A DNA stretch of 64,000 nt, from positions 21,903,365 to 21,967,364 of the forward strand of contig NC_092678.1 in the NCBI RefSeq assembly GCF_964355755.1, in the 5' to 3' direction. This document shows, piece after piece, positions 3,193 to 39,604 of the stretch. Position 1 is the first letter of the stretch. Each line of letters starts with the position of its first letter. The DNA is from Antedon mediterranea (Eukaryota; Animalia; Echinodermata). Position numbers and translations under genes: made by a program. The notes beneath the pieces are model-generated. The model had not been told where the DNA came from and did not search any database. It saw nothing but the letters and a program-made list of their open reading frames with translations.

Positions 3193-3699
3193 TTAAAATC
3201 TATAGTGTTTTAGTACAGAAATACAAGCTTCCACACCAATATTTGTGTAGTGTGGGTTACCTCCTTCTTTTGTATGGGCTATGACTATAACAGTGTTTGC
3301 GGACTGCATCGATATTGCTCCATGATTCTCCAGTTTACCCCCAACAAGTAATGTGCCGTCTTCTTTCACTTCGTGCATCTCATATGTGTATAGGACACCA
3401 CCAACTTGTATATCACTTGACTCAAACGCTGTTAAGTCTTCATTTCTAAAATACTCCGCTATGTTCGCACCCTCACTACCCTTTAGTACAATCGTCCTAG
3501 AATCGAATTGTAATGGTTCCCAATAATTGCCGTTTTCTAAGCGAATTATACAGGCTTTATCTGCATGATACGCACCGGTTAGATCCGAACTGAGAGTGAT
3601 CACCGCATCAGTCCATGAATTAATATCAGTCAATGGTTGCGTGTACACCGGGTTAACAAGTGAAAGACAAACCAAGGCAACCAAACTAATGAAACCCAT
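3193..3699 (-). CDS. Divergent profilin paralog 1 with putative signal peptide (168 aa from ATG 3699; a further in-frame ATG lies at 3801)
   Basis: Intact intronless ORF. Leader MGFISLVALVCLSLVNPVYT-Q is followed by a profilin-like body (SW...HADKACII...EGANIA...GAISMQSANTVIVIAHT...TNIGV) that aligns with the two other copies. Confidence 0.85.
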   Translation of the reverse strand: MGFISLVALVCLSLVNPVYTQPLTDINSWTDAVITLSSDLTGAYHADKACIIRLENGNYWEPLQFDSRTIVLKGSEGANIAEYFRNEDLTAFESSDIQVGGVLYTYEMHEVKEDGTLLVGGKLENHGAISMQSANTVIVIAHTKEGGNPHYTNIGVEACISVLKHYRF

Positions 3700-4722
3700 T
3701 ATATCGTTTAAGTTCAGAATTGTAATCAACTTTGAGTTATATTCACTATCACTGTAGAAGGAATGAACATATTTTTTTGCAATTTCATCACTTTTATACA
3801 TTTTCTTCAGCCATTAAAATTATTTAAACATTATTTATTACATTTATAAACGTATGGAATTTATAATTATGCATTTTTTATGCAATTCGGCAAACTGTAT
3901 ACAGTAACGCATGCTAATTGTTTTATTATATTAAATTTTTTATTTAGAATAAACAACAAACATGCGATTTATGATAATTTTATTATTTTGATCTTTTTGT
4001 AACGATCCTAATGGAGTGGCTTTCATTACTATCTATATATTACAATTTTAGCATAAACAAACAAGCCATTGTTCTAACCGTATTTGTTATTTTTATGAGA
4101 AATAATTTTGAATTTGTAATAACAAATTAGAAACTATAATTGAATTGATCACTTTGACGAATTATAGGTGATCATTTTACTGATATTTAATTTAAACAAG
4201 AAATATTTCTTACAAAAAACGCTGCTCGCTTATTGAAAAATATTTTTTATTTCTAATGTTTTTGAATGTGTCTTTATTTTCACATAATAGTTATTTTACC
4301 TGAAAAAGTGTAATTTAAAGCAACAAATACTTAAATTGTCTGTCAGACAATGGTTTTTGGGTTTCTTTTCTCTTTTTATAGGCTGTGAATAAATATTATT
4401 TTTTTGTTACAGAAGTGAATACTCAATTTCTGTCACTTTAATTTTATTGCTAAGGTCAAGTCTGGCGGTCACTTCATCACCCTAGATATTTCAAGTGTGA
4501 AGTATTATATCCTATATTACAAACACAAACTTTAATGGACTGTTTCGATAATAATTCAATGAATATCTGACAGTGAATATACCAGAAATGCTTTGGGATT
4601 TGTAATTTTAGCATGACATGTCCTAATAGACTCTTTTCCCAGACGTTTTTTGGGTCTACTGTAGCAGCTGGAATCAATAAATTATAGTGGAGTTTCCATT
4701 TTCGCAAAACTGTCGTCCTTAG

Positions 4723-6672
4723 AACTAGCTATAACAGCAGCAGCGTGAAAAAACAGGCAGGTACGTTAAATAAGACCGCAAAATATTGATTAGGCAATCC
4801 TATTACCTGATGCATATATGCTTATGATGCTGATTGGTGCCTATTATGTGTCATAAAATCGTCGATGAAGTGTAAATGGGGTCTTTTTTTATATACTCTA
4901 TACGGTACAGTTCACTGTATATCTATATACTGTACTGTACAGTGTAACATAGGTGAAATTACGGGAACCACAACATGTTTTAATTTTTTGGTATGATGAC
5001 GTTGTCAAAATAAACTTGCAGATCACAATTTCGAAAGAAAATGAATTGAGCAAAAAATTATAAGATTTGGAAGAAAATTTGGCACGTAGAAACGCACTGC
5101 GCGCTCTTTGAAATGTGTATAAATTTGTCGAAAGGGAGAAAAGAACTACTTTTTAACTTCAACTACATCCTATAGGCTTAATTTTTATATGAATTCATAT
5201 CTACATTTCATCAGCTTTCATAACAAAATAATAATCATCAAGGTAACCTTTAATTCTGAAGAGCTGTAAGATATTCAAAAATACGGTGTAGGTAAATTTA
5301 CACGACCTACGTTATTCAAGTTTTTACGCGTGATGACGTCATCAAAATGAAAATGTTGACAACTCATGAGAAAGATAATTAATTGAGCAATCATATACTA
5401 AAATTTGAGCGAAAATCGGGCACAAAATAACCGAGGTGCGCTCTGTTGAATATGATAATCTATGACGAAAGAGAAAAAACTTAATTTTTAAATTCAAGAG
5501 GCCATTTGATGACGTCACAACATTTTGTACGTAAAATGTGTACATGAATTTATATCTACAACTCAATGGCTTCCAGAATAAGTTAAAAAGATTGGGGGTC
5601 AACGTGCATTCTGAAGAATTATTTTCATTTTAAAAATGCCTTATTTTTCACCATTTTCAGCACTTTTATTAATGTGCGTATTTTGTAATTTTTTACCTGC
5701 TCGTATAGCGTTATTTTAAGTCGGAACGGACTCAAATTCAGTGAATGTACTAAGGATGGTGAGTAGAATGCAATTTGTACAAACATTTTAAAGTATCGTG
5801 CGCATTTTTGAGCAGTTATTTTTTAAAACACGCAAATTTATGCTCTAAGTTGATCAAAACCTAATTTTGAGTTTTTTAAATTTTTAACGCGCGATTTCAC
5901 GCGCATGACCCTACGTGCGCGTGCGTTTTTATTTGCTAATATTTTTACCCTTGACCTGAAGTTTACGTGTAATAAATTTCATTAATATCTGATAATGAAT
6001 TATGGAGATATGATTGATAATGTGATTTCATAAAATGGCGTATAAATGACGTCACGGTTGAGTGATCGCGCTGAAAAGCTTATTATGATGCCTAAGTTAA
6101 AGTATTTGAAAGATATTGTGACATTTTTGTGATCATTGCCATTCAACTTTTTGAGATAAATGTTACACAAAAAGTGTAAAGAAAGAAGAATAACATTAAA
6201 GATTTTATACAATAAGAATAGGTAATCATTTTGTTCTAAATGATCACCTAAAAATGACAACAAAGACATTGTTATTCATGAATAATCAACATAATCAGTT
6301 TAATCATATTCAGTCGTATCAATGCACTTTTGATTTAATGTATAGCATTAGGCATAAAGAACAAATAAATTGTATGAACATTTGAATTATTTCTTATAGT
6401 GTTACGTTTGTCGTTAACGGCCTTGAAAATATTGATGTGGTTATCACGCAAGCAAGTGGACCAATTACAAGCAACTATTCCAAATCCTTTGCTCGCGCTT
6501 ACGTCAATGCGCTGCGAGTTTGTATTATTAGTGAAAAAGAAAAATATATTTTGGCACATATGGCGTTTCATACGTATACTACTTGATTTTGTATTTTCAG
6601 ACAAAAATCGCGGTCGAAACAAAAACAAATAAATAAAAAAAAAAGATAATAGACTTGGGGCAAGTCTACTAC
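4723..6672 (-). mobile_element. Longer HINE-like element, related to 41936-43167
   Basis: 5330-5900 is clearly homologous to 42187-42790. Terminal hairpin tagacttg-ggg-caagtcta (6650-6668) follows an A-rich tract. The left end (aactag at 4723) is tentative. Confidence 0.6.
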
Positions 6673-7216
6673 TTACTATATTGTTACAACACACTTTCAC
6701 AATTGGTTTTGTAAAATGAAAAATTCAGTGAATATTACTGAAACTGAAAATCGTGCATAAAAAACCATAAACAAATTTTGTATACTCATAAAAAAAAAGA
6801 ATATTTGGAGATACCGGATGTGTCACGATTCTACCATATCACTTCCATATTTGAGCATACTGTATCACTACCATATTTGGGCAAATCACTATCATATTTG
6901 GGCACATCACACTTTTGTTGTCAAACAAGTTTCATAGTGTAAACAGAGCTTAAAGGAAAAGAACTCACAACTTGTAGATGAAATGTAACCATGGTTAACT
7001 TTTGTTTGTGAATTTGATAGAAATTAGAACATTTGTATCATTGAAGTATCATAAGTTGTTTGTTGGAAGTTCGGCTAAAAAGATGATGCCAATCCACTAT
7101 CAAGTATCAGATGAGAACAATATTCATTGATTAATATTTGTGTGTGTTCTTCTTCTGAAAATAAAGTGCAGTGTAAATCGTCTACGCCTATAGTTCAAAC
7201 ATTGTGTTCACACAAT

Positions 7217-7460
7217 AGGCCCTAATTGATTATTTTTTATGATGCATACCAAAATCATATAAAACCAATTCCCATTTGAAATTGTTTATAATTAAAAGAG
7301 AATTATAAAATATTCCTGATTTAATGAATTAACTTGAATTTTAAATTTAGAAAATTAAAAAAACAATAGGGCCCTAATTGATTATTTTTTATGATGCATA
7401 CCAAAATCATATAAACCCATTCCCATTTGAAATTGTTTATAAATAAAACAGAATTATATT
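7217..7460. repeat. Direct duplication of a ~90-bp AT-rich block (period ~150 bp)
   Basis: ggccctaattgattattttttatgatgcataccaaaatcatat...agaattata occurs at ~7218 and ~7370. Confidence 0.85.
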
Positions 7461-8020
7461 ATATCGCTCAACATACAAAACCTTCCTAAGAAGAATGCTA
7501 GTGAATGGCTTTCAAAGGGTCTGGCCACCAAACCATGTAGACCCTCAGATGAAGAAACAGATGAAAACTATATAGACTGGAGTTACGTAATTGATAATGA
7601 CGATCTCTACAAGATTACTGGCTTTCAACCGCTAGAAGAATATGTCTACAAGCAACAATTCAACTGGATCGGACATGTAATTAGTAAAGAAAATGAAGAT
7701 CCTACAAAAATTCTTACTTTTCACACAACACAAAGTAAACGAAGAGGTCGGAAGATACCATCAGTACTTGATAGAGTTGTACAACAAAGTCAACTTACTA
7801 GATGCAACTTCATTAGAGCCTGCTTCAACAAAATGTATAATTCCCAGCAATGTTTTAACTGTATATATGACCTGTTTTATAAGTTGTTTTGTGACTGTGC
7901 AATTTGGTAGTAGTCACTCTCATACTGTACATTTAAAAGTAACACATCCAAATGCCAACTTTAAGTCAATGGCTACCAGATGTCTCTGTGAGACGGTTAT
8001 TTAAACCAGTACCAGTAGTA
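7461..8020 (+). mobile_element. 5'-truncated RTE-like LINE fragment
   Basis: Hand translation with one frameshift gives YKTFLRRM.../DWSYVIDNDDLYKITG..QQFNWIGHVI..KRRGRK, resembling the post-RT 'W.GHV...R.RGR' region of RTE-clade LINEs. Confidence 0.65.
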
Positions 8021-9269
8021 TAGGGCCTAACCAATTTCGAGCACACACGACTGTAGCATGTACATGGCCTTGTTCGTTTTGTTTTCGTAGTAAAAATAAT
8101 GTTTTCAGTTATAAAAATCACAAAATAAACGGTTAATTTCAACCAAAAACCCATTGGTAGACAGCCAATTTCATAATTTTTTGCTTTAAATTACAGTTTT
8201 TAGGTAAACATATATTTTAGGTTCAATTTTTGGTCAAAGTGAAGAACTATTATGTGACATTAAAATGGAATATTTAAAAAAAAAAAAAATAAAATTTTTT
8301 TTTCAGTGGGACAATACATCTTTAATATAATAATTAACCGGCTATTGGTCAATTCAATAGCTACCATGCTTATAATTAGCAATTACCAAAATACGCCTAC
8401 AAATTATTTACTAAATTTACTGTATTACAAAGTCGTCGTTATTATTATAGAAATAATAAATATATTAAATTAATCACCAAACACAATTAATATTCACTTT
8501 TCTGTTAAGCTCTGTCAACACTATCAAACTTTATGTGACATCAAATGTGACGTGCCTATATATGGACACGATGATGTCGTCATATCACTACCATATTTGG
8601 GCATATCATACTTTTTTAGTCACATAAAGTTTGATAGTGAGTGTAGACAGAGAATTACATACTACAACAACACAAGATGCCAGCACAGAAACAATATTAG
8701 TCACATCAAGTTTGATAGTGAGTGTAGACAGAGAATTAGAAAAAATCTGGAGTAGCCTACTGTAACCTAGAAAAACCATAACGCCACCAGATTATATGAA
8801 TTGCTTGATTCAAATTGAGATTGCCATGTACTCTTTGTAACCATCTGCTCTTGTGTATGTACTCTATGTATATTGTCGGGATTAGGCCTATATGATTTGA
8901 AGATGGTCTAATATGATTAAACCAATCGCATTTTCGCAATAATAAAGTCAGTCTAAACTGGTTAGATGTCCGTCTGTTGTGTGTGCGTTTGTGTAGGAAG
9001 ATAAACAATAGTATAGTTCACATCCATGTTGTATTTGCTCTTGTAAGGTTCGTGGTATATAATGTACACAATGCTGAGTATCGAAGATGGAACGTCGTTA
9101 GCAAATGGTTAGATGTCCGTCTGTTGTGTGTGCGTTTGTGTAGGAAGATAAACAATTAGTATAGTTCAAATCCATGTTGTATTTGCTCTTGTAAGGTTCG
9201 TGGTATATAATGTACACAATGCTGAGTATCGAAGATGGAACGTCGTTAGCAAATGGTTAGATGTCCGTC

Positions 9270-10398
9270 TGTGGCTAAAGATACGGTACCGTATTCTAAC
9301 TTCTGTTTACTAAAGATACGGTAAAATTGCATTACGTCATAACCAGCCAATGGGGTGCTGGCACGTGTGTGACGTCATCGTATAAGGACTTTGTGGATTT
9401 TTTTCATATCGCGAAAACCATGGAGGTATGGCGAAAACAGTTTAGTTATAATGGGAAAGTTTAGGCGATGTGCCTTTTTAAACCCCATATCAACTACATT
9501 GTGTCGATGCGATTCTTGAAGGTATTAGCGGTCTCAGAATTGACAACGTCGGCTGGTAAACTGTTCCAATGGTTTATTACTCGTTGCGAGAAGGTATGTC
9601 TTCTACAGTTCAATCCTTTATGGAAAGTAGGCTTGAAAAATCTCAGGTGATGCCCTCGAGTAATTCTGCTAATGTTACTTCTCATTTGGAAAAAGTCATC
9701 CTTGGCTACACCCTCGAAACCTTTAACAATTTTATATGCTTCAATCAGGTCACCTCGAATTCTTCTGTCATACAAGGTTGTTAGGCCAAGAAACTTTAAA
9801 CGATCTTCATATGATCAACCGCATTTTCTTTATGCTTTATTTATCGCTATTATCGCCGTCGTGTGTGACAAAAACTAAATGTAGCCTACGTCTGTTATTA
9901 TTATTGAAAAGCCATGTTGATTTTAATTCTAGAATAGAGAAAACCGTTTTAAAAGAGAAGGGAAAGCGATTCCAGGCTGTGGCCAGCTGCATATGTGTGC
10001 GCTGATTTCTGTGACTCGTCAGCCCTGGGACTACACTGCTGTCTAAATCATAGTATTTAAGGGCTCCTTTATTGTCCGCATTTGCTTGTTGTTTATGGTC
10101 ACCATTGTAAACAAAGTTTTAAAAAAATATAGGCCTAAATAGGCCATTTGGAATAAAAATAAAACCCTCATCTGCAGCGCAGCACACACATCCACGCAGC
10201 CTGGCGCCGCCGATAGGAATTCTCTACATATATACAACAACCAACAACAACAGACGCGATATGAAAAAAAAATCCCAAGTCCTTATACGATGACGTCACA
10301 CACGTACCAGCACCCCATTGGCTGATTATGACGTAATGCAATTTTACCGTACCTTTAGTAAACAGAAGTTAGAATACGGTACCGTATCTTTAGCCACG
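9270..10398. mobile_element. Non-autonomous DNA element with ~140-bp terminal inverted repeats
   Basis: 9270-9412 (gtggctaaagatacggtaccg...catatcgcg) is the near-perfect reverse complement of 10256-10398. Confidence 0.88.
9465..9815 (-). mobile_element. CR1-type LINE 3' fragment nested inside the TIR element
   Basis: RRIRGDLIEAYKIVKG..TRGH..RRHTFSQRVINHWNSLPADVV..FKNRID is the characteristic C-terminus of CR1 ORF2. Confidence 0.9.
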
Positions 10399-10661
10399 GC
10401 GATAAACAATTAGTATAGTTCACATCCATGTTGTATTTGCTCTTGTAAGGTTCGTGGTATACAATGTACACAATGCTGAATATCGAAGATGGAACGTCGT
10501 TAGCAAATGGTGTAGTTGTTTCTTCTTCTGTACATAAAGGACAAATCTTCTACATTTTTAAGTTTTGATAGATGAATCATTTTCACAAAAAAAAAAAAAA
10601 AAGCGATATACTGCATAAGCCTATCTGTAGTGGATATGCGTTGAGTATGGTTTGCATGTGA

Positions 10662-11153
10662 CTACATTCCCAGGGATTCAAGATATTCAGCAATAACTGC
10701 GACACCTTTATTTGTGTTTCCTTGCATTTCTCCCTCTATGGTGTGTGCGATGACTATGGCAGTTTTTGAAGACTGCATCGTAATTGCTCCGTGATCTTTC
10801 AGTTTACCCAAAACAAGTAGGCCTGTGTTCACTTCGTCTTCCCTCAAGAATTGGTATTGAACCCCCTCAGCTTGTATACCACTTGCCATGAACGCTGAGA
10901 AATCTTCACTTTTGAAACTCACTGCTATATCAGTAGCCTCACTTGTTGTTAATTTGTAGGCGTTGGCATGGCCATCTGTTGTCCATTTCGCACCACCGTC
11001 CAAACCAATTATACAGGCTTGATCAGCATGCTCTGTACCACTTGCATCCTTAGTTTGAGCAATCAAATAATCAATGTATGAATCCCAACTCTGCGTGTAC
11101 ACCGGATTGACAAGTGAAAAACAAACCAAGAAAATCAAACAGATGAAACCCAT
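10662..11153 (-). CDS. Profilin paralog 2 with putative signal peptide (163 aa)
   Basis: First in-frame ATG is at 11153 (the ORF-track start at 11210 is GTG). MGFICLIFLVCFSLVNPVYTQ is fused directly to SWDSYID...; the body is about 70% identical to the cytosolic copy by manual alignment. Confidence 0.9.
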   Translation of the reverse strand: MGFICLIFLVCFSLVNPVYTQSWDSYIDYLIAQTKDASGTEHADQACIIGLDGGAKWTTDGHANAYKLTTSEATDIAVSFKSEDFSAFMASGIQAEGVQYQFLREDEVNTGLLVLGKLKDHGAITMQSSKTAIVIAHTIEGEMQGNTNKGVAVIAEYLESLGM

Positions 11154-11816
11154 GTTTCTTCTTCTAAGTTCAGAATTAACCAATACCGAGTTACCGTATT
11201 TAGAGTACACCGCAAGGACTGTACATATTTCACAATAGTTCTCACTTATTCATTTAATTTTAATTAAAACAATGGAGCCTATTGTATTCAATATAATTAT
11301 AATTTCCATACAGAATGCATTGATTTAGATCCCGAAGATTAATAATTAATTAGTAAATAATTAAAATTTACCTTACAACCGAATTTTTTATTTTTTTCCT
11401 TTTGTAATACAATCTAATCCCCGTGTGGACGACAACACATTGTTTTCAGTTTATTTTAATTTTTAATATAATTTATAATATTAAACAAAAAAGCCATTGT
11501 TGTGATTTATTATTTTTTAATTTTATGTAGATATATAAAAAAATAACTAGTTTGCCTATTCAGTAAGTTTGTAATGGACTGGTAATTAAAAAATGGCTTA
11601 ACCTTTCGATGAAACATTGACATTTTAGAATTTTGCGTAGGCTACATTGTGATACCTACCGATATCACAGCATAGCGACGACGTCTGGTGGTTTATAGAC
11701 TATTATTTCAAACTTATCCCTGCAAGTCTGTATAGTTTATTGTTTACTTTTATGTTTTGTATTCTAGTCATCGGCGTTTTGATTTTTTTGAAACTAGATC
11801 AAGTTTTATAGTATCA

Positions 11817-11915
11817 TTTTAGTCGCGTACAAACGCGACTCTACAGCTCACTATCGGTCGGTAAACACTAACTAAAATTTGAGCACGCGACTGCAGCTGG
11901 CCATGTATGGTCTTG
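11817..11915 (+). mobile_element. Minimal ~100-bp HINE/DINE-like element
   Basis: tttt, then agtcgcgt-acaa-acgcgact hairpin, (tcgg)2, second acgcgact at 11885, 3' hairpin ggcca-tgta-tggtc, and ttg. Confidence 0.6.
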
Positions 11916-12529
11916 GACAAATGGAAGTGCGGAGGAGAGGGAGGGGGTGTCAGTTAGAGGAAGGTGTGCACAATGAGTGTACAGTTTGAATACGCCAAGT
12001 GATGAAAACATAAAACATTAATTATGTTAAATATTAACATATTGCGTGAACAATTAATTTGACGATTTGTTGCTGTTCTTCTTATATAAGGTTTTTTTTA
12101 TGTTATTATTATTTTAAAAAATACAAAAAGGGAAAAGGAAGTAAAAATAGGCTATATAGTATATATATGTATTGAAATGTATTATTTGCAATTCGTACTT
12201 TTTTTTAATACCTTATTCATTTATTTTTATTGTAATTGATTGAAAGAAAGAAAATAAATGTTTACGTTGATTGATTTGTCATATAGTACCGAAACTTTGA
12301 AAGGTCTAATCACCTCAATTGACTTTTGAAGAACGCACTTTTTGTTTCATGTGATAGGCCTACTCTACTACACATCAAACTTTATGTGACAAAAAATGTG
12401 ATGTGCCCATATATGGACATGATATATATCACTACCATATTCAAGTATATCACTACCATATTTGGGCAAATCACACTTTCTTTGTCAAACTAGTTTGATA
12501 GTAGGCCTATATAGACAGAGCTTTACTCA

Positions 12530-12712
12530 TGGCCGAGGTGTGGTCGTCTGTAAAGTTTGGTTCCAATCAGGGAGCGATGCAAGGTCGTAAGCGCAGCACA
12601 CGCGAGTTACCCAATATAATAGAAACTTCGGCGCCGTTTACCGTACCTAAAGAGCCAACAACATCGGCAAGGGTTCGAGGCCGACTCGCTCCTAGTTCTG
12701 GTGGTGGAATAA

Positions 12713-12746
<34 letters not shown>

Positions 12747-12950
12747 AGTGTACACAGTTATAATCTGTGTGTACTTTAAAGAACCCAGTTCATTATTCGA
12801 AAAGTGTAGGGGGTTACCCCGGTGAACTGGTTCACACAATAGCCCCTGTGTCAGGGGGATTACCACCTATCTGATAGGACAGTGATTAATTCACTATTGG
12901 TAATCCTTGGCCACATTGCCTAAAGACATAAAATTAAAAAAAAATAAAAA
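12530..12950 (+). mobile_element. SINE with Deu/Nin-type central domain
   Basis: B-box-like ggttcgaggcc; core cttctcagataaggactataaaccgtaggtcc...ttaaagaaccc...ttcga...gtagggggttaccccggtg; A-rich tail. Confidence 0.75.
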
Positions 12951-15365
12951 ATATATAGTATATGCTTGGAATGTGATTGGCCTAATTACTTTTGGTGCGC
13001 ATACGTCTGCCCTTCTGTTGCGTGCTAATGGAAACCACCAAGCTTAGGCTACTCTCCGGTATTTAGATGCACACGTCACTGTTTGGTTCCATTTCTCTAG
13101 AACACTACGACCAGTAAGTACTATAGATAGGCTATTTAAATGAAAATAACCAATAAAAATAATGATGCGAATATAAAAAACACATAAAAAAGAGAAAGAT
13201 AATCCAGGGCATTGTGATTGACCTTTAAACAGATATGCCTTTCAATTGTTCACGTTGTAAATGCCATGTCATTCCTGATGCCGGCTGACTGCACAAGTAC
13301 AGTATAGTTGCCTTAACAATTGAATAAGGCCTACTTAGTACCCCAGGACCAATATGGTACAGGATATAACATGTGCCTTGTATTTCGTAAACTTTGTTCA
13401 AACCTACCGAGCAATGATTTCGTAGGGTAAGCCAGGTGACATCAGCAACGTGTTCACATTCGTTCTCTGCAGACCATACTACTACTCTGCATTTCGTATA
13501 ACTTGGTCCAATAATTTGACCAATCACGACGCGATGACCACCGAATTGTCACTTATGATTGGTCAACTCACTTCCGTTTGGGGAGTTTGCTCCTTTTTAG
13601 CAAATTATATATACAGTAATGTAATATTGAAGTTGTCACATTTAAGGTTTCTTCACACTCACTTATAGTATTATACGCAGCGCAGGTAATTCGCGACAGT
13701 TCGACTTAGATTGGACAATGCGTTCTATTGTCACACATGCGCACAGGAGGTACTTTCCTGTTTTAGGTTGGTCTTCTTACGACATGTATATTGTAAGATA
13801 TATAAAGTTCGGTCTACACTCAATATCAAACCAGGGAGTTGTTATAATAACAACTCCCTGATCAAACTATATTGACAAAAATGTGTGATAAACCCAAATA
13901 TGGTAGTGATAATACATCATCATGACCATATATGGGCATATCCCACTTTGTTATCGCATAGCTTAATATTTGTTTTGGAGACTTACTTCCTATGCGTATA
14001 ATTTAAATTCAGAAGAAGTTGATTGAATAGAAGTAAATGCATTAGAAAACTGCAAATGTTAAAAAATTGATTCAAACACAAAATGAATGGTAAAACAAAA
14101 TTGTTGTTCTGCCAAAACACAAGGTCGGTTGATTTGGAAAGTTTGTTTAAAGTACGGTAATTTACCGTAAAACAAACAATATCTCGGGTAAAACAAATAG
14201 TTTGTCAAGTAAGCAAATTTGAACTTTATAAATATGGGATGTCATTTATTATTTCTGCCAAAATCAAAAGTGGAATTGTTTATACTATAATAATCATCAT
14301 AAAAAAGATAACATGCATTCATTATATCAAGTTACATACAAGCTTTCACAGTAAAATGAATATGTTGTCAAAGAAACCCATTTTATATTAGTGAAAAAAT
14401 TCTACTTTACTAAACTATTAAAAACAACGTTGCATAACCAGTTAAGATTTTTATACTCTTAAAAATAGAATATAAAAACTCAAAACAATGCTAAATACAT
14501 ATCAGTTTGGGGGATGATACTGTATATGGTTACTTTATTAAGAACAATGTTAAAAACTAGAATATTTGTCACAATTGTAAGTAATCAGAAGCTGCTTAGT
14601 TGACAATGTAGCAAATATTAAATACAAATTAATTAATTTACTAATTATTAGAAGACCGTTTATTACTACTATTTAGAAGATAATACTTGTATATTCAATT
14701 AATCAACCCAACTAATATTGCTTGGTATTGAAGCATTTTAGAATCAACATATCATTGCAAGTGTTATATTTATTGAGATAATGTCTTTAAACAGGAATAT
14801 CTCTGAAGTCTGCTGTGGCGGGAAAAGCATCACCAGAGGTTTATAAGAAAAGTTGCTTGGTCCAATAGTTCCGCATTTTGCGATTCTTGAATTTGGGTTC
14901 ATAAACTGTAGTGTCAATTATCTGGAAAAATGTTATTTTAACATTGGCTATACAGATCAACGTAACATTAAGCGTCGGGCCCATAGTAGTCATGCCACTT
15001 TTTATGTATTGATATATTATAAAGTTATTAGTATGGTAAATGTAAAAATTCTGGAAACACTGGATGAGATTCCTCCTCTGCTTGCTGTGTCCGTTCAAGT
15101 GGCTAGAGGTTTGGTTATGGAAAGATAGTGCCAACAATTCGACATGCAGTAAACTATGTCAAGTTACCGAAACAATATTATTACAGCATTGATCAATATT
15201 TTGTGTTCTTGGACTAAAAATAAATTGCAGTGTTAATCTTCTACTACACCTACAGTTTGTAAGTTCGAAAATTATGATAAATCATTTTCACAAAATGAAA
15301 AAGCGAGATATCTGTAGTATTAGTTAGTATGCTTTGGTCTCCTCTCGGGTACAGGTTGCATGCGA

Positions 15366-15788
15366 CTACATTCCCAGGGATTCTAGATATTCAGCAATAA
15401 CTGCTACACCTTTATTTGTGTTTCCTTGTTGACATCCCTCTGCGGTGTGGCCGATGACTATGGCAGTTTTTGAACACTGCATCGTAAGTGCTCCTTTATC
15501 TTTTTTTTTGCCGAAAACAGTTTTTTTGTCTTCTTCCCTCAAAAATTGGTATTTTTCTCCCTCAACATATATACCACCTGTCATGAACGTATTGAACTCT
15601 CTACTTTTAAAACACTTTGCTATGTTCGCACCCTCAGCACCTTGTAGTTTAAGCGCCATGGGATGGCCTGCTGTTGTCCAAGGTGCGCCACCGTCCAAAC
15701 CAATTATACAAGCTCTATCACTATGCGCTGTACCACTTGCATCCTTAGTTTGAGCAACCAAATTATCAATATATGAATCCCAACTCAT
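15366..15788 (-). CDS. PFN: Profilin, canonical cytosolic (140 aa)
   Basis: MSWDSYIDNL...ACIIGLDGGAPW...KYQFLR...QGNTNKGVAVIAEYLESLGM is a typical invertebrate profilin, similar to sea-urchin profilins. An in-frame TGA upstream fixes the start codon. Confidence 0.97.
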   Translation of the reverse strand: MSWDSYIDNLVAQTKDASGTAHSDRACIIGLDGGAPWTTAGHPMALKLQGAEGANIAKCFKSREFNTFMTGGIYVEGEKYQFLREEDKKTVFGKKKDKGALTMQCSKTAIVIGHTAEGCQQGNTNKGVAVIAEYLESLGM

Positions 15789-15859
15789 GATTTTAATTGC
15801 TAGGTTTATAAGTGTTCAATAAACTATGAGAATCAAAGAAATGTACGGCTTACTTTAAC

Positions 15860-17376: not shown

Positions 17377-20300
17377 ATGCGATGCATTACACGTTTATGG
17401 GGAGCATCGTCATTCTTTTACCACCGGCCTTTAAGGAAGCAGAGTTTTAAGATTTTACTAGTCGTTTTCTGTACCTCGATTATCAACAGCAATGCATTGT
17501 GGGGATTGGTAGAAGATGCGGAGGAAAGTAGAGCAATGGTACAGGACAAAATAGCAATTGTTGGAAAAGTATTTGTGTATCGCATTCCAAGTGTGAAGAG
17601 TAAGATGAAGGTGAGAAAATTATTCAACAATTAAATTAGACTGTTTTTCTTCACATCAGTATTGAGTAAAGTTACTATACAGTTGTAGTATACAGTAGTA
17701 CCACATTATAAAGCCTTGTCTACACTATCAAACTTTATGTGACAAAAAAATGTGACGTGCCCGTAGATGGACATGATGATGCCATATCACTAGGATATTT
17801 GGCCACATCAGTACCATATATGTGGACATCACACTTTTTTGTCAAATAAAGTTTGATAGACAAGGCTTAATATGCTATGCGAAAAAAAAAAAAATTATCA
17901 ATATTTTGTATCTCTGAATACTAACTATATATTATTGTTAAATATGGTTTGGGAATGCTTTTATTTTCGTTGTAGTGAATATCTCCATATCATGAAATTT
18001 TCACTGTCACTTCTTTTTTTTCCCTCCTTTATTTTAGGTAACAGAAGCAGGATGTGAATCTCTCCCTGATTGGTTGGACTTCAATGCTGATAATTTGACA
18101 CTGTATGGTATAGCTACTGTGCTGGACATAGGATACCACTACATAAGTGTAACAACCACATCGGAAAACAATAAAGTCTCTAGAAATAATGATATCTTTA
18201 CAATTGATGTCATGATGGACATATCTTTAACTGCAGATAAACTGTCGGACCATTTACCAGAACGAGCAAGAAATAAATTAACTGATATCTTGTTGTTGAA
18301 CCTTCAATCATCAGATGTGTTGACGTATGAGACCAGACTTGAATCATGTTCACCAGACCAACCTCGCTATTCGGCAACTATCATCTTCGATTCCACATTT
18401 AAGGAACTCGGTGGGCAAGCAAGAGTTGACGTTGCCCTACGGTTTGCAGAATTTGTGTCTCGTAGCCCGGTTGATATCACCTTGAGTCCACGTAAAAGTA
18501 CTAGTATCACTCGTCTACTTAAAAAATCAATTGTGGCAGCCGGCGCTGGGGATGTGGATGACAAACACATGGAGGAGAATGTTGAGATTTCATGGACCAT
18601 AGCTTGCAATTATCAATTCCGCATAAAAGACTTTATAATGATTTTAGAACACAATATTTTAAGCAAAACCTTGACAAATGTCATAGGATACTCCATACTT
18701 GGTTGGTATATAACCAAAGAGGCGCCCAGATTCAAACCAAGGATCAGACGGCAGGCGAATGGTATCATTGAAGGAACACCAATGCCCACTCCAAGTCTTA
18801 CCATAGTTCCGCCAACCAATGTAGGGAGTACAAGAACTTTCACTTTTCCGTCCACATCAATATTTTCCGAGTCCACATTTACAATTGAGACTATTCCGTC
18901 CATGTTTACACAAACTATATTTGCATCTCAAGATTCACAACCTTTAATATCATCATTTAGTACATCTGATCAAACATCTTATATTTCATTCAGTTCATCA
19001 GATAGTATAGTGTACTCAACCTTATTTACTTCAGAATCTGTACTCCTATCAACAACAAATTTGATTATGACTTCAACATTGCATATTTCCACTTTGGAAT
19101 CATTTTTCTCAGAATCCGTGTCCACATACAGTGTCCCTCAATTAACTTCATCCACTGCAAGAAGTAATCAATTTTCATCAACATTTATCACATCTTCTTT
19201 GTCTGAGCCATACTTCACAATGACCATTTCACCTGTTGAATTAAGCTCTTCACTTGCTAGAAGTTCTTTTGAAAGTTTTTCTGAGACTTCTTCCAGTACA
19301 TCATTTCAATATCTTAGTAGCGTTGAGAGCTCCTTCAGTTTCTACTTTTCAACAAGCATGGCTAGAGATTCTATGGCCACTGTTGTTCCATTTTCTACTG
19401 ATTCACTATCAATTTCTCCGGTGGTTTCGACAGTAACACTAACAACAGATGTAATGCCATCGACATCACAAAAATCCTCTCAAATGTTGACACAATTGGA
19501 GAGTGACTCTTTGTCAACTGTAATTGTATCAACTGCTGAAACTACTAGTCTAGATATTTCTTTAGACTTATCGTCTGTCATTACTCATCAGCCATTGTCA
19601 TCAACTGAGTTAAATTTATACTCATCAACTTTAATCACAAGTTCAGACTTATTTTCTGTGATGAGTAGCTCTGTTGATGATTCCTTTGTAACCAGTTCTG
19701 TTTTAAAAGAATCAAGCATTTTAGTGTCTTCAGTATCAACTATCCTATCATCAAGTTTTGAGGCGTCTGTTCCAGTGTTCAGCTCTAGCCTGTCACAAAC
19801 CTTCTATTCATTGCAACCATCCTCATCTCTCCTGCCATCAATGACACCTTCTGCATCATCTCAGCAAATCATGTCTTCATCTGAATTGTATTCCATGAAA
19901 TCTTCTTTTTCTATACTATCATCAGAATTGTCACCATCTATATCCGAGACATCTTTTTTTATTAGTTCAATCAACATCGAAACACAAAGTGTATCTCCCA
20001 CATCATCAGTGCTATTATCAGAACCCACCCCATCATCATCAGCAACACCCCAACCATCAGTATCCCAACCTTTAACACCCCAACCATCAGTACCCCAAAC
20101 ATTAACACCCCTAATTTCAACACCCCAATCATCAGTACCCCAAACATTAACACCCCTAATTTCAACATACCACTTATCAACATCAACAACATCCTTTTCC
20201 ACATCCAGCAGTTTGATGCCATCATCGACATTCTTGACACCCTCACCATCATATTTCCCGTCATCTGTTATGGAGAGCAGTTTGCCAACAGTGGTTCCAA

Positions 20301-22046
20301 CACCAACTCTATCTACATCTATCATGGGATCATTGTCCAGCATTTCTGTGTCGTCAATTCAGCAAGTGTTATCTTCTGACATCATACCGTCATCATCCAT
20401 TTCAAATACCATAATCTCATCCAGTTTGTATGTCATAACTCCAGGTAATAAGAACATTAACATGCATGTGTGTTTCTTTGGTGTGCAATATAGAATAAGC
20501 ATGTATTTGTTGTCATGTCCTATTGATTTTATCAGCATATAATAGTAAATATAGCACCAACTAAAAAATCAAAGGCACTGTGGTGAGCTCCTGAACCTTA
20601 TATTTTGTGTATGCTCTCCACCTTGGGTAGGGTTTTAATACTATATTTTGAATTGACTTTTTATATTTTTATTCGAACCATATTTAATGAGGGTGATCCA
20701 TCCAGTAATTGCTGATCATTTGGGACCCTCAGAACAGATACAATACACAAAAAAAGAAAAACAAAACTTGAGAGATTAGACCTCAGATATTCTAAATCCA
20801 CCCAATGTTTACAAATTAAATTTTTTTTACAGAACCCACCAATCAAGGACCGGTTGTTCTTAACGCCATCAATCATGTCTCAATCATAATTGGACGGATT
20901 CTACACTTTGATATTCCTGCCGATACATTTCACGATGCAGAAGATGGAAACACACGCAATCTTAAGCTTGAACTACTTGCAGGTGATAATGAACCTCTAC
21001 AGGGATCGTCATGGGTGAGGTTGGACTCTGAGAATCAGGTTATCTACGGGTTGCCGTTGGATTTTGATTTAATTGGCCAAAAAATAGTTTATAATTTACA
21101 TGCAATTGATACAAATGGTTTAAATGTGTTTGATGCTTTGTATTTAGAAGTGCTTCCTGACCCGTTTATATATAACCACCGATTTTTCATAACATTTAGC
21201 AATAATTACTTTGGATTTGCAAGTTACGTCAATAACGCTATAAACGTGTGTCAACGATTGGCAGATTATTATGGTGATCCGAACACGGATATGATTACAG
21301 TTGCCTCAGTAACAGAGGGATCTGTTATTTATGCGTATGCAAACAATAGCATTGCCAAAGATTTTTGCGATAAGGATACTGTATATAATGTGTATAGTCG
21401 TCTTGCGTATGCAAACGGTTCAGTAAACATTGGCCTATCGATTGTCATGCATCCAAAGTTTTCAGTTATTGCAGTGGACAAAGAATTTACAGGGATATGT
21501 TTACCAAAACCGCAAACCACCAATTCTCCGAATGTGATTGCGGAAAAACACACCAGTGAGGGTGACATAATTCCCATCATTGTACCTGCCCTCCTTTCTG
21601 CCTTAATAATTTTACTGATTGGAATTTGTGTTTGTTTCTGTTATAAGCGCAAACGTCATGGAGAGGAATTTCTATTACCGGAAGAGACTAACATGTTTGT
21701 TGGTAACCGTAAACCAATATTTCTTGATAATGAACTTCAGAAGCAAGCAAAGGCAGCCGAACCAGTAATCTTGCCTAAAGATATATCGCCCTTTCAAGCA
21801 AGTCCAATTTCTGTAAATTACCCCTTGGAAGGCAGGCCTTCTCCTCCTTCATACCTAAATGAAGCTTATGAGAAAGACGACATAGACTTGGGTATTCCTA
21901 TGGCACCTCTTTTTATGCCCCCTGCTTATTCCCCCCAACCTACTTTTAACAGACCACCTCCTTCGTATATGGACCCTCCTACTTATCGTTTACCTCCTCC
22001 GTATGAATCGGAAGATGTTGGGATTTTTGAGACATCAAAAATTTAA
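17377..22046 (+). CDS. DAG1: Dystroglycan precursor (~1284 aa)
   Basis: Coding exons 17377-17610, 18038-20444 and 20833-22046 (GT-AG, frame-consistent). Shows Ig/cadherin-like VTEAGCESLPDWLDF, furin site RIRR-Q followed by TPMPTP, a Ser/Thr mucin region, second Ig domain IPADTFHDAEDGNTRNLKL, SEA autocleavage motif VTEG|SVIY, a TM helix followed by YKRKRHG, and a PPxY tail. The exact start codon is less certain. Confidence 0.93.
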
Positions 22047-33945: not shown

Positions 33946-34522
33946 CTACCACACTTTAGAATTTAGCCTCAAAACTATTTTATGAAGCCTTAAGGTCAAT
34001 CCACATAAAAAGTAACAAATAATAATAATTTGATGATTTTACAGAGAACGTTGAAGTGGCAGAATATTTTCGTTTCTGTGGAGTACGAATTTGTCTAATT
34101 TTAATGCTTTTATTTGTGAAATACATGGTTTAATTTCAATAATATTATGTCAATGTTTTGTACATTTGTAGTTAAAATACAAGACAGGTGCGAAAGGGAA
34201 CTAGCTTGTATTTTCATTACATACAACACATTGTAATTACGCTTGAAAACCGTACACCTGGAAGCTACATGAGTTTATGCAAATTTTATAAAAAGATACA
34301 CAGCGCCACCAATAAACGCTAACGTTTTTTTTATATTAACTGTTGTTTGTTGTTGATTGTTTACTCCATAATAATTCCGCCTGGCGCGTGTCGTGTGCTA
34401 AGTTTTCCTTTACTCACGTACCTAAATATTCTTACTTGAAATGTTAATTTAAAGTGTTCATAGTAACACAAAATACCATCAATAGAACACGTAAATCACA
34501 TAGAAGTAATTTTATATCAATT

Positions 34523-37500
34523 ATGAAGCTTTCCGATCAAGTAATTCGGAATTTTCGTGTCGCAAAGCTTTTCAAGGATCAGAACACAGCAAAAATCAAC
34601 AGTGTTGATTTTTCACATAATGGCGAAACTTTAATATCCAGTAGTGATGATGATTCAATTGTTATTTATGATTGCTTAGAAGGAAAGTACGTGCTAACAT
34701 ACTTAGTAGTTTTTAGTCAAACATTTACAAAAAAGTACATTTTTTTAGTTTTAAAGTGTGTCGGTATTTCATTCGAAAATTCGGGAACGCCATTTTCGGC
34801 TTGGGACGAAACGACTATTTATCAGTGATACCGCCTGTGTGTGCGTTAGATTTAAAGATGATTTGGGATGCATAAAAAACAGGGTCAGGTGGCCTAGGTA
34901 CCCAACCCTTTATGAATTGGTTAAAATTCAAATTAACTAATTTGTTTAACTCTAATTGATAGAATACCCCATTTTCTGCATAATCCATTAATAATTTGGT
35001 AAATCAATTTATTCATAAATGTTGCAATAAATACATTTTTTTTAATTTTATCTAAAAAAAGAAAACACATTGATTGCAACTACAGTGTAATTTATGCACA
35101 GTAGGTAGCAGGCAATCTAGACTATTATTTATTACAAACAAACAAGGTATCTATTTGATAATTTAACAAAGTGTATTATTGACTTCATCGTCAAATAAAT
35201 AAGTTCAGCCCGCGTACACTACAAAATAAACATTTTATAAATAACACTAGGCCTACAGCTTTTTTTTTAGCGGGACGCATTGAACTTTTTTATTTTTAAA
35301 GATAAATTGACAAATATGTTTATATATTGTGGAAATTAATTCATCCACATACAGTATTCTTAATGATTTTTAAACATTTTTTCTCTTATTTAACAGACCT
35401 AAAAAGACATTGTACAGTAAAAAATATGGAGTCGACCTTATTCGTTTTACCCATGCCCAGAACACATGTATTTATAGCTCAAACAAAATTGACGACACGA
35501 TTCGATACTTGTCTCTACACGACAATAAGTTCATCCGGTATTTTCCAGGACACACACGAAAGTAAGTTCTGTACAGTACAGTGCTTTTCTAAATTTATTA
35601 TTTTACTTTTTATCTTTATGAGTAAAAACAAATGTCAATAAATAAACATTTTCTTGTGGCAGAATCGATTACGAAACTATATACAGTAGTAGCATAATAT
35701 TATAATACCGGAAAATATGTTTGCTTAATTTATACTTGAATTTGCATAATTTAACTATGTATAATTTATTTGCATTATTAAATTTTCATAATTTATTAAA
35801 TATGTATAATTTAATGCATATACATGTAAAAAAAAAATATTGTTTTTAATTCTTGCAGAGTTGTAAGTTTATCAATGTCGCCGATTGATGACAGTTTTCT
35901 ATCGAGTTCATTCGACAAAACTATACGGTTATGGGACTTGAGGTCACCGAATTGTCAGGTAATAGACATAGAAGTGTTGTTGTCTCAGAAGTGCGTGTTT
36001 AAAACTCTGTCTACACTATCAAACTAGTTTGACAAAAAAAAGTGTGATGTGCCCAAATATGGTAGTAATATGACATCATCATGTCCATATGGGCACATTC
36101 ACATTTTGTTGTCACATAAAATTTGATAGTGTAGACAGAGCTTAAGAAAGCAGATGCAGGACATGAGAATCTTCCTCCTATAATTCCCCCTAAAAATAGT
36201 CCCTAAAATGACACAGAATTGTTTACACTTTGCAGGGAATGATGCAGCTTCAAGGGAGACCGGTGGCAGCATTCGATCCCGAAGGATTAATTTTTGCTTG
36301 CGGAATAAACTCGGAAATGATAAAATTGTATGACCTTCGTTCATTTGATAAAGTAAGTTTTTGTAATATTACAGATTATGCGCACATTGGGATACATATG
36401 AGCAAGCATGGAATGAATTATTGGACATGGTTGAGTGGCTCGTCAATGTGATAAATAAGCTGACCACCAGTATATTTATATTTTACCTGTTTTGCTTATT
36501 GGTCTTGTAAAATGTAATGGACAGCGAGTTTAATCTAAATTAAAATCTTTAGTAATTTTTTTTTCTCTTTTATATGTACCTTTTAAAGGGTCCTTTTACG
36601 ACGTTCCGCTTACAACAAGATCGAGATTGCGACTGGACCGGACTTAAATTCAGCTCGGATGGTAAAATGATCCTAATCTCAACAAATGGACCAGTTATTC
36701 GTCTTATTGACGCTTTCTCTGGACATGCGCTACAATCGTACATGGTACAGTAATATTCAATTCAATATTTAACTTCATAAACATTTTCTATAGCATTTTT
36801 TTAATAAGAATCTTGGCCCCCACAGGGGTCTGGTTATATCTTTGTACCAGACAAACAAGATAGATAAAATAAACAAAATGATTAAGTGTACGTACAGGTA
36901 ATTTTTTTCGCCTCTTACCTTCAACACTAATGTTGCCACCTTCAATATTACAATAGTAAGCTGTTTTAATACTTTGAATTGTCACGGTTTATTAAACATT
37001 TTTGTGTTTGTTTTGCAGGGTCACATGAATCAAAAAGGCATTTTATTGGAAGCATCGTTCAGCCCGGATGCACAATTTGTTTTGTCAGGTAAATAAATAA
37101 ACAAAGCATGTATCATGCATGAATTTGTAAAGTTTATATATATTTTGGTATATTGTATTCAACATATAAATAAAAAAAAAAAAAAACTATTGCAGCCCAA
37201 AGAGCTGAATTTGCCGAAATACGTACACGTACGTATTCATGAATGAATTGAAATGTAAATAATCCCAAATGATCAGCAAATGCTGGATGGATCACCCTCA
37301 TTAAATATGGTTAAAATAAAAATAAATATACAGATTGCAGAAATAATAACATTAAATTGACAGCATCAAGGAATTTACAAGAAACACAATGTACAAAAAA
37401 TGCAGTCAGGTTAAAAAATAATTACTACAGGCTCTGAGTTGAAAAATCATCCTGCACATGATTACAATCATATGATCATGTGCAAAATTACTTGAACCCT

Positions 37501-39604
37501 AAGATTGTATTGTGAAAATGAAAATAATAAGGTAAAATATGATAAATTTGAAATATATTACCAGATTTGTATTTTCTCTATAGGATCTCAAGACGGAAAA
37601 GTCCATATATGGAATGCTGAGAATGGAACAAAGACGGCTGTACTGGAGTCGAAGCATAATGGTGCTCCAGTTCATTGCGTACAGTTTAACCCCAAGTACC
37701 TAATGTTGGCAACCTCCTCACAGTCGATGGTAAGGCTTTATGCTTTTGAATATTTTGTAATATATCTTATCAATCTATTTCAATTTTCAACTCAATTTTT
37801 TCCACATACGCCACCACAAACATGTACATGGAGGATGTATATTTTAAGATCTATGCAGATCTTGATTGAAAATGTTCATCTGGTTTGTAGGTATAAGTAT
37901 ATTGAAAATATTCTTTTTTTCAAACCAATAATTAGTAAGAACTAACCTTGAATGTTTCGCTGTCCTGATCGGACAGCTTCTTCAGAAATAATGACCAATT
38001 ATTGGTTTGGAAAAAAGAATATTTTCAACTATGCAGATCTTTAAGCTAATAAGCACTCTTGAAAAATATTAAATATTGACAATAAAAATAAAAGCAAATA
38101 AATAAGGCAGTATGCAAATAAATAACAATATATATAAACAAATCAGGCAAAGAACATTAATTCTAAACCGCCCGGTGATATATATATATATATATATATA
38201 GGTAACTTTATTCCAAAAAATGTAAGAAAACCACGCACAGTGGATTTACAAAATCTGATACGTTCTTATATGCATGCATCCTACAACAACAAAAAATATA
38301 AAATAACGTAAAAATAAAGATTCAAAATAACAAAAGCCACTTATTTCTGTTTAAATTATACTGAAATTTAATTAATTTGAAACGATAAAGATGAGGAAAT
38401 CTGTGAGAATGAGAAAAATTCGCCCCAACCGAGACTCAAACTCGGACCGCCTGCTTGATATGCAGATTTCCTAACCATTAGACCACAGGGGCTTTCATGG
38501 TATTGTTCAAACTCGATTGGATAGCGACTCTTTAACATTCTTGGCATGGTACGGCGGAACAGCACTAGGCCTCAGTTGTACGATATTATATAATTATGTA
38601 TTATATATAAATTAATAAGCTGGGTGTTATTTACTCACCATATATCGAGATCAGAGACAGTTTAAATGCACTTTAAAGCTGTTCGGGGATGTTTAACCTA
38701 AATTTAAATTGGAAATAAATTGTCACAAATATTTTTCATAAAATAAAGTAATTGGTTGAATACTATTTAGTATACCTCTAATACTAAATTACAATAGAAC
38801 TTCCACGTTTGGGACACCTCTACTAAGGAGACACTGTCAGATCCTGAAGGTGTCCCCTTGTAATACCTCTACTAAGGAGACACTGTCGGATCCTGAAGGT
38901 GTCCCCTTGTAATACCTCTACTAAGGAGACACTGTCGGATCCTGAAGGTGTCCCCTTGTAATACCTCTACTAAGGAGACACTGTCAGATCCTGAAGGTGT
39001 CCCCTTGTAATACCTCTACTAAGGAGACACTGTCAGATCCTGAAGGTGTCCCCTTGTAATACCTTTACTAAGGAGACACTGTAAGATCCTGAAGGTGTCC
39101 CCTTGTAATATCTCTACTAAAGAGACACTGTCAGATCCTGAAGGTGTCCCCTTGTAATACCTCTACTAAGGAGACACTGTCGGATCCTGAAGGTGTCCCC
39201 TTGTAATACCTCTACTAAGGAGACACTGTCAGATCCTGAAGGTGTCCCCTTGTAATACCTCTACTAAGGAGACACTGTCGGATCCTGAAGGTGTCCCCTT
39301 GTAATACCTCTACTAAGGAGACACTGTCAGATCCTGAAGGTGTCCCCTTGTAATACCTCTACTAAGGAGACACTGTAAGATCCTGAAGGTGTCCCCTTGT
39401 ACTAATGTTTGTTCAATTTTCGTGCTTATTCTGTATTCCATTCCATTATCAGTTTATTGTACTCTATTTGTATATGTTTTTATTTTGGAATAAACATTTC
39501 AATGATTGATTAATAGGGGTTCTACTGTATATTTGAATGTAAAATCACAATCTAATTTTTTTCTTTACTTTTAGTCGTTTTGGCTGCCAAACATTGACGA
39601 CTGA
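34523..39604 (+). CDS. WDR82: WD repeat protein 82 (Set1/COMPASS and PNUTS-PP1 subunit)
   Basis: Exons 34523-34686, 35397-35561, 35859-35958, 36236-36352, 36589-36744, 37019-37088, 37584-37729, 39575-39604. Sequence [57 protein letters not shown]-terminus SFWLPNIDD. Confidence 0.97.
37954..37985 (-). ncRNA. Hammerhead-ribozyme-like core, probably a Penelope-like-element remnant
   Basis: CTGAAGA-a-gctgtcc-gatca-ggacagc-GAAAC inside ~30-bp inverted arms (~37903-37933 / ~37998-38029). Confidence 0.6.
38421..38492 (-). pseudogene. tRNA-like sequence (Glu/Asp-type scaffold, ATC in the anticodon position); pseudogene or SINE head in the last WDR82 intron
   Basis: 72 nt: GCCCCTG TGGTCTAATGGTTAGGA TCTGC-ATATCAA-GCAGG CCGAG-TTTGAGT-CTCGG TTGGGGC. 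T-loop is mutated (TTT for TTC) and the acceptor stem has a mismatch. Confidence 0.65.
38816..39400. repeat. 49-bp tandem array, 12 copies, inside a Tc1/pogo-like MITE (38792-39527)
   Basis: Unit acctctactaaggagacactgtc(a/g)gatcctgaaggtgtccccttgtaat; flanks ta-caatagaac and ggttctactg-ta. Confidence 0.97.

Follow-up and report, generated by a model that had tools for sequence, protein, structure and literature searches.

Candidate secreted profilins in a tandem gene cluster of the crinoid Antedon mediterranea and the possible origin of their leaders

Profilin counts as a protein of the cytosol, and profilin and actin form a textbook pair; a profilin that begins with a hydrophobic leader raises the question of whether it is made for another compartment and, if so, from where such a leader would have come. 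This question is posed by three tandem profilin genes, here called A, B and C, in a 64,000-nucleotide stretch of the genome of the crinoid Antedon mediterranea (NC_092678.1, positions 21,903,365 to 21,967,364; this whole stretch is referred to as the window, and coordinates count from its first letter). A first-pass annotation had claimed that two of the three genes, A and B, carry leaders, and the coordinates, strand, frames and leader sequences that it gave were all reproduced in our analysis. Our preferred explanation, to which we give a probability of roughly 0.6, is that A and B lost their own start codon and took a leader from DNA like the non-coding sequence upstream of C, that this leader is a signal peptide predicted to be cleaved, and that the proteins would be secreted, with B binding actin from damaged cells.

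The profilin cluster and the coding status of its leaders

The genes and leaders are arranged as follows:

3193..3699, minus strand: profilin A, 168 residues, without introns and with a leader, much diverged and acidic (net charge of the mature protein -10); from open reading frame, Pfam, structural model and Foldseek
3640..3699, minus strand: leader of A, 20 codons, predicted signal peptide with predicted cleavage after Thr20; from a simple signal-like rule and known signal-peptide anatomy
10662..11153, minus strand: profilin B, 163 residues, intronless, leader-bearing and acidic (net charge -11), with a body 69% identical to C; from open reading frame and Pfam
11094..11153, minus strand: leader of B, 20 codons, predicted signal peptide; from the same rule and anatomy
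15366..15788, minus strand: profilin C, 140 residues, intronless, with an ordinary Met start and no leader; from open reading frame and Pfam

All three proteins exceed the curated cut-off of the Pfam profilin domain (PF00235, 25 bits), with scores of 40 (A), 84.8 (B) and 103.6 bits (C); profilin is their only Pfam match, and they show no homology to gelsolin or albumin-family domains. The AlphaFold model of A displays the full profilin fold with a mean predicted local distance difference test score of 88.8 (58 and 53 in the leader blocks), and its top matches in a Foldseek search of the Protein Data Bank are all profilins (E 3.7e-8). For B, the ESM Atlas model (predicted template modelling score 0.84) has a profilin cluster as its top structural row, and the Atlas comparison yielded profilin clusters only, with scores below 0.9. 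By domain and fold A and B are thus profilins, and they depart from the family in their start and their predicted location, whilst C presumably represents the cytosolic parent type. A tblastn search did not find a fourth copy in the window, and a third leader-bearing paralog lies outside it: XP_071959797.1 (P0023), annotated as 'profilin-like [Antedon mediterranea]'. The intron found at codons 44-51 of genomic homologs (L006, L032, L038, L039, L041, L046) is absent from A, B and C, which suggests intron loss or a retrocopy ancestor.

The family start Met, present in C and in 125/125 close ordinary homologs, is absent from A and B; in B, its position is occupied by the Gln codon CAG (11093-11091). 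Past the leader, A has no Met before residue 108 and B none before residue 89, so that a complete profilin domain requires the leader to be translated. The A, B and C proteins are found in NCBI and UniRef exactly as read here, and hence the public gene models include both leaders. Comparison of the two leaders reveals identity at 16/20 residues and 54/63 bases without a gap, whilst for the adjoining 110 nt upstream two of the three gap settings tried require 11-13 gaps (no usable alignment came from the third), a difference with a Poisson p of about 0.002. The leader of P0023 has 14-15 of its 20 residues in common with those of A and B. Between A and B, the proportion of non-synonymous differences (pN) is lower in the leader than in the body (0.11 against 0.37, p 0.0004); the leader ratio of non-synonymous to synonymous divergence (dN/dS) is 0.33, a value which depends on 9 changes (4 synonymous, 5 non-synonymous) and does not reach significance by itself (p 0.19). 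In the bodies dS amounts to 0.32 (B-C) and 0.47 (A-C) and dN/dS to 0.66-1.29, the highest value being that of A-C, and by these values the copies are young or converted. The first-pass annotation had taken leader conservation to imply selection: the low leader pN speaks for this, but since the copies are young and dN/dS is not significant, it amounts to partial evidence only. As a measure of chance, an open in-frame ATG lying 13-40 codons upstream and passing the signal-like rule was counted for 794 of 127,726 codon positions in the window (0.6%).

Some observations at the 5' ends of A and B count against a translated leader, and they bear on a different explanation: A and B could be weakly expressed or decaying, or the ATG of B could lie in an upstream exon spliced to CAG, the apparent leader being the pyrimidine-rich end of an intron. 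The B leader is 48% T and ends at CAG, a possible splice acceptor; the copies are young and their body dN/dS is high. Contigs from run X1, which we guess to be RNA, cover the body of B (10616-10724 and 10761-11062) and none lies on the leader, in a read comparison limited to B (10610-11500), to which run X6 contributed no contig and in which contig holes and depth carry no weight; B occurs in X1 only in low-depth contigs that may stem from carried-over genomic DNA, one of which differs by two amino-acid changes and by 6 nt inserted in frame. In A, however, the junction codon is CAA and no AG acceptor, with AGs in the first 130 nt ending only at nt 14 and 110, and P0023 has Gly at the junction between leader and domain. 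The three leaders and the bodies of A and B are free of indels and stops, and the leader pN lies below that of the body. Among the genomic homologs, the 6 with a first exon ending inside the domain all have ATG and domain start together on that exon, with the break at codon 44-51, so an intron immediately behind the start codon is not usual in the family. We consider an untranslated leader unlikely, and on the evidence of conservation, lost Met and exon structure we read the leaders of A and B as coding sequence.

A further point against the start of A as given here is an open in-frame ATG at 3801, located 102 nt upstream of the leader ATG, which would add 34 residues if it were transcribed:

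3792..3801, minus strand: TATA-like box (3798-3792) overlapping the in-frame ATG at 3801; putative promoter, from sequence reading

An Inr-like (initiator-like) hexamer is located between the two ATGs at 3766-3761. The ATG at 3801 is probably outside the mRNA, as the TATA-like box overlaps it.

Beyond these genes, two contigs (one from X1, one from X2/X5) match the 3' end of B (window 10660-10790) and then become unlike A, B and C as judged by eye; these are perhaps further paralogs outside the window, one of them perhaps P0023.

Predicted signal peptide and location

Each leader consists of Met-Gly, 13 uncharged residues and Asn/Ser-Pro-Val-Tyr-Thr, followed by Gln21 and an acidic domain start. 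Residues 3-15 have a mean Kyte-Doolittle hydropathy of 2.9 in A and 3.2 in B and hold no charge, as expected of a hydrophobic signal core, and the polar stretch Asn-Pro-Val-Tyr-Thr before Gln21 places small residues at -3/-1, in keeping with the small-residue rule for these positions. Applying the signal-like rule together with known signal-peptide anatomy, we predict that both leaders are cleavable signal peptides for the endoplasmic reticulum (ER). Neither N-glycosylation sites (sequence scan of A, B and P0023) nor ER-retention ends were found, A ending in HYRF and B in LGM. N-myristoylation of the Met-Gly start was considered and rejected, residue 6 being Leu and not Ser/Thr. The cysteine count falls from 4 in C to 2 in A (C27 and C131 in C numbering), 1 in B and 1 in P0023; a single Cys is found in 5/6 close leader-bearing domains against 6/125 ordinary ones, three of the six being paralogs and hence not independent.

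Two features of the leader speak against cleavage: the core is preceded by Met-Gly only, with no positively charged n-region, and the best 19-residue hydropathy of 2.0-2.2 would be enough for an uncleaved anchor. Such an anchor would leave the profilin domain in the cytosol on ER or vesicle membranes, where actin and phosphatidylinositol 4,5-bisphosphate are found, and would explain why B has kept its ligand residues; internal hydrophobic anchors are indeed present in some homologs (P0143, P0171, P0172, P0230, P0237, P0240). Many eukaryotic signal peptides, on the other hand, also lack a positive n-region, and many of the other leaders found in this family have a classic basic one. The core of only 13 residues ends in Asn/Ser-Pro-Val-Tyr-Thr and fits the -3/-1 rule; the residues after it are acidic, not basic as the positive-inside rule would have them for an anchor of this kind, and cysteines have been lost. 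We regard the anchor as improbable, even more so than an untranslated leader, and maintain that A and B quite likely enter the secretory pathway.

The first-pass annotation had proposed an ER-targeted, secreted subfamily of profilins. This proposal holds in so far as the leader appears to be coding and signal-like, given the loss of the start Met, the absence of indels, the third paralog, the acidic residues after the core, the loss of Cys and the same layout in other animals; ER-signal-like behaviour of the leader is thus supported at the level of prediction.

Origin and recurrence of the leader

A feature that the first-pass annotation did not see is the homology of both leaders to DNA adjoining the leaderless gene:

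15789..15851, minus strand: non-coding DNA directly 5' of the ATG of C, homologous to the A and B leaders, with no ATG and one in-frame TGA; from DNA match

In a tblastn search the B leader matches the frame upstream of the ATG of C, reading through a stop. The best non-self ungapped match of its 60 nt among 127,882 positions on both strands begins at 15851 (minus strand; 34/60), immediately 5' of C and shifted by one codon; the A leader matches the same site at 32/60, tied best. As the DNA ahead of the ATG at 26 unrelated profilin loci scores only 13-26 with the B leader and 13-28 with the A leader, the match does not reflect generic T-richness. Over codons 3-16, B leader and C upstream agree at 29/42 bases, evenly spread over the codon positions (10, 10 and 9 of 14), as expected if the C side is non-coding. 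One X1 contig joins the coding part of C unspliced to this upstream stretch. As C retains the ancestral Met, the simplest history is a duplication after which a new ATG arose upstream and the old one disappeared, and we consider it likely from these DNA matches that the leader was born from 5' non-coding DNA.

The reverse direction is rather unlikely in our view, although not negligible: the leader could be old and common to the bivalve and annelid forms described below, the upstream DNA of C being a decayed leader, whether through leader loss in C, through gene conversion or from an ancestor with two starts. Protein trees do not place B with C, tandem genes convert each other, and an approximately unbiased (AU) test does not reject a single clade (p 0.24). 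Against this, the Met of C stands where all 125 close ordinary homologs have it, the 29/42 identity fits the young body dS, the leaders of other phyla have no evident likeness to the crinoid leader by eye, and the leader label needs 3-6 changes on the trees.

As an observation on other loci, the frame upstream of an ordinary profilin ATG is often hydrophobic (L013, L016, L018, L039, L041); it may be speculated that such a frame predisposes a gene to gaining a signal peptide.

The layout recurs in other phyla, which the first-pass annotation had likewise not seen. Protein searches (the best 120 of 510, 120 of 740 and 150 of 493 matches) gave 289 proteins, 250 of them with the start of the domain. 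Among the 45 with at least 13 extra residues, the signal rule was passed by 17/31 homologs that lack the Met and by 0/14 that keep it (p 0.0003; p 0.0006 after merging evident kin). Leader-bearing forms are found in Mytilus coruscus (CAC5401405.1), Ruditapes philippinarum (XP_060562890.1) and Owenia fusiformis (CAH1796580.1), the other homologs that pass being records with unchecked gene calls. The Mytilus and Ruditapes leaders are of equal length and alike at 6/19 residues including an FGRV motif, which argues for their being coding sequence.

The breadth of this recurrence has to be set against several results. The profile behind two of the three protein searches included a leader and hence favours leader-bearing matches, and in a scan of DNA using the body only, 0/40 rows with an N-terminus (48 loci) passed the signal rule; the leader-bearing form is thus a real minority. 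That scan also returned 3 rows, from two bacterial genomes, with a Met-less leader. A search with A returned A alone (1 of 32 candidates), and no ortholog of it was found. Trees built on the 139-column domain are poorly resolved and show neither single nor multiple origin: a quick tree of 65 rows, with long-branch warnings, needs 6 label changes, as few as in 62/500 shuffles and hence without demonstrated clustering, whilst a tree of 28 rows hand-chosen to avoid long branches needs 3, and it was on this tree that one clade of the six leader-bearing rows gave the AU p of 0.24. It is the dissimilarity of the leaders and the DNA homology at the locus, and not the trees, that suggest independent origins.

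Several other architectures were noted among the homologs. Fusions of an anchor, profilin and actin are recognised by Pfam in P0171, P0172, P0230, P0237 and P0281, of which P0172 clusters with a EukProt protein of the dinoflagellate Polykrikos kofoidii; the linkers hold RRL repeats (two sequences read) as possible processing sites, and a type II anchor would place both actin and profilin in the lumen. In P0145, P0162, P0210 and P0003 the profilin domain is followed by a C-terminal hydrophobic segment, three of these also exhibiting an N-terminal signal-like leader, a combination that would make them type I membrane proteins exposing profilin on the outside. In P0162 leader and profilin are separated by a Cys-rich region, and P0161 has an ShK-like domain ahead of a Met-keeping profilin, the start of this record being cut off. 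Animal-type profilins also occur in bacterial contigs with bacterial-looking neighbours (Calothrix, Caldora, Dapis and a gammaproteobacterial metagenome-assembled genome; L001, L003, L004, L005 and L002, the last at about 3965-4480), several of them misnamed 'DNA primase' in the source records. The Caldora protein has a 31-residue leader, 28/31 residues of which are kept in P0122, and the Dapis frame ends early at 113 residues.

A broader and decidedly tentative view is that the secretory pathway has time and again recruited profilins of the marine-invertebrate type (in crinoids, bivalves, an annelid, dinoflagellate fusions and bacteria), and that these form an unrecognised class of extracellular actin binders; the crinoid cluster would then be such a birth caught in the act, with the signal taken from the 5' non-coding DNA of the parent and A turned to a new ligand.

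Ligand residues, possible function and known systems

The likely ligand capacity of A and B differs, a point missed by the first-pass annotation. Both B and P0023 keep W3, Y6, W37, Y134, R84, K94, K107, N125 and K126 (C numbering), and B also K96; judged by sequence, the four poly-L-proline aromatics (W3, Y6, W37 and, in the C-terminal helix, Y134) are hence all present in B, whilst R84, K94, K96, K107 and K126 are the basic residues that it retains on the presumed actin face. Of these A retains only W37, with W3 replaced by I, Y6 by W and Y134 by V, and it has further replaced G30, G72, K79, K96, K107, Q120, G122 and K126. In mammalian profilins Trp3, Tyr6 and Trp31 are named as poly-proline residues and Arg74, Arg88, Lys90 and Lys125 as actin residues (PMC2694148); we infer the equivalence of the actin face to human R74, R88, K90 and K125 through an alignment with Acanthamoeba profilin.

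Not all features of B agree with actin binding: its net charge of -11 lies outside the range of 125 close ordinary homologs (-5 to +1), K79 and Q120, which are invariant or nearly so in these relatives, are altered, and a 3-residue insertion lies near the putative actin face. Being acidic and changed at K79 and Q120, B may bind actin more weakly. Actin buffering as the main job of B is accordingly a proposal that we hold at somewhat below even odds, resting on its kept residues.

The proteins could instead be secreted for other ends, as acidic constituents of matrix, mucus or skeleton that bind proline-rich proteins or cations, or as cell-surface signals. For A this is the reading we prefer; for the pair as a whole it is the less probable one, although the strongest of the alternatives that we weighed. 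The isoelectric points are 4.9 (A) and 4.5 (B), and three other leader-bearing domains have net charges of -9 to -12; A has lost W3, Y134, K79, K96, K107, Q120, G122 and K126 and in this resembles mammalian PFN4, in which binding of actin and poly-proline was lost (PMC2694148); the body dN/dS of A to C is 1.29. Extracellular profilin-1 is reported to trigger signalling in smooth-muscle cells (PMC2963617). Acidity is, however, not general: net charge as a mark of leader-bearing forms was rejected, showing no overall difference from ordinary ones (p 0.47), and little net charge is found in P0023 and in the Owenia and Mytilus forms. The presumed actin-face residues are kept in B and P0023, and among the shell, mucus and coelomic-fluid papers listed, no title or opening of an abstract points to such a protein, although proteome tables could list it unremarked. 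A probably binds neither actin nor poly-proline, as is the case for PFN4, and may have another extracellular ligand.

Returning to secretion with actin binding by B as our preferred explanation, the events may be pictured as follows. A tandem duplication would have copied a C-like gene with its upstream DNA, for which the DNA homology is observed and the direction is our reading of it. An upstream in-frame ATG would have turned T-rich non-coding sequence into a hydrophobic leader, with subsequent loss of the old ATG. From known signal-peptide biology, the products would be imported by the signal recognition particle and Sec61, cleaved after Val-Tyr-Thr and released with an N-terminal Gln, possibly cyclised. 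The observed cysteine loss and acidic shift may represent adaptation to the outside. B and P0023 would then buffer extracellular monomeric actin in coelomic fluid or wounds, on the model of plasma gelsolin and Gc-globulin of vertebrates, whilst A would probably have moved to another ligand.

Crinoids shed arms and gut. If the explanation is true, dedicated secreted profilins are candidates for clearing or sensing actin from wounds and autotomy in marine invertebrates. The presumed parent and its daughters lie side by side, and the signal peptide can still be aligned to non-coding DNA, which affords a rare direct view of a change of compartment. Profilins of this kind, recurrent across phyla and with an apparent non-coding origin of their signal, would come as a surprise to the specialist in the cytoskeleton.

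As for the surroundings of the cluster, exons of a dystroglycan gene (18038-22043, plus strand; Pfam a_DG1_N2 and DAG1), which holds a very long Ser/Thr-rich mucin-like region, lie head to head with it, and exons of a WD40-repeat gene are found at 34448-37942 (plus strand). Between A and B (8959-9272 and 9494-9814) there is a two-copy 148-bp tandem repeat and a frame resembling the end of a long interspersed nuclear element (LINE), the latter judged by eye and without a Pfam match.

The secreted or extracellular profilin literature that we found concerns human or Toxoplasma profilin. A signal-peptide profilin was not found in the titles and abstract openings of the papers listed (searched for secreted or extracellular profilin, crinoid, Mytilus, coelomic fluid, and bivalve matrix or mucus), though proteome tables could list such proteins unremarked. 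Human profilin-1 is counted among extracellular actin binders in a 2026 review, which states that the protein has no form specialised for an extracellular location (PMC13763760); acting on cells from outside, the protein signals in smooth-muscle cells (PMC2963617). Unlike A and B with their predicted signals, extracellular human profilin-1 is released from platelets, damaged cells and exosomes.

That a cytosolic actin regulator can also exist in a form with a signal peptide is known from gelsolin in Drosophila and vertebrates (PMC2119988). Its fold is unrelated to that of profilin, and the secreted form comes from one alternatively spliced gene, whereas separate paralogs are found here; gelsolin severs filaments and profilin binds monomers. 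The likeness is only an analogy in the way the two would work. In mammalian PFN4 the fold is kept whilst actin and poly-proline binding are lost (PMC2694148), as inferred for A. PFN4 is intracellular and testis-specific and, in the account of it used here, has no described signal peptide, in which it differs from A.

Microcystis PfnM is a bacterial profilin of eukaryote type. The Caldora (NES19246.1) and gammaproteobacterial profilins are of the same type and have likewise lost the Met and gained a leader, on intron-free bacterial contigs; their leaders are of the bacterial export type, failed the eukaryote-style signal rule and are unrelated to the crinoid leader. The profilins of marine invertebrates (PROF_CLYJA and PROF_HELCR of sea urchins; Nematostella) exhibit the same domain and fold as A, B and C, and B is 70-77% identical to its nearest ordinary relatives with the poly-proline aromatics kept (among the best 120 of 510 matches). 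What sets A and B apart from these ordinary profilins is the leader in place of the start Met, the fewer cysteines and the acidic shift, to which A adds the loss of many conserved residues.

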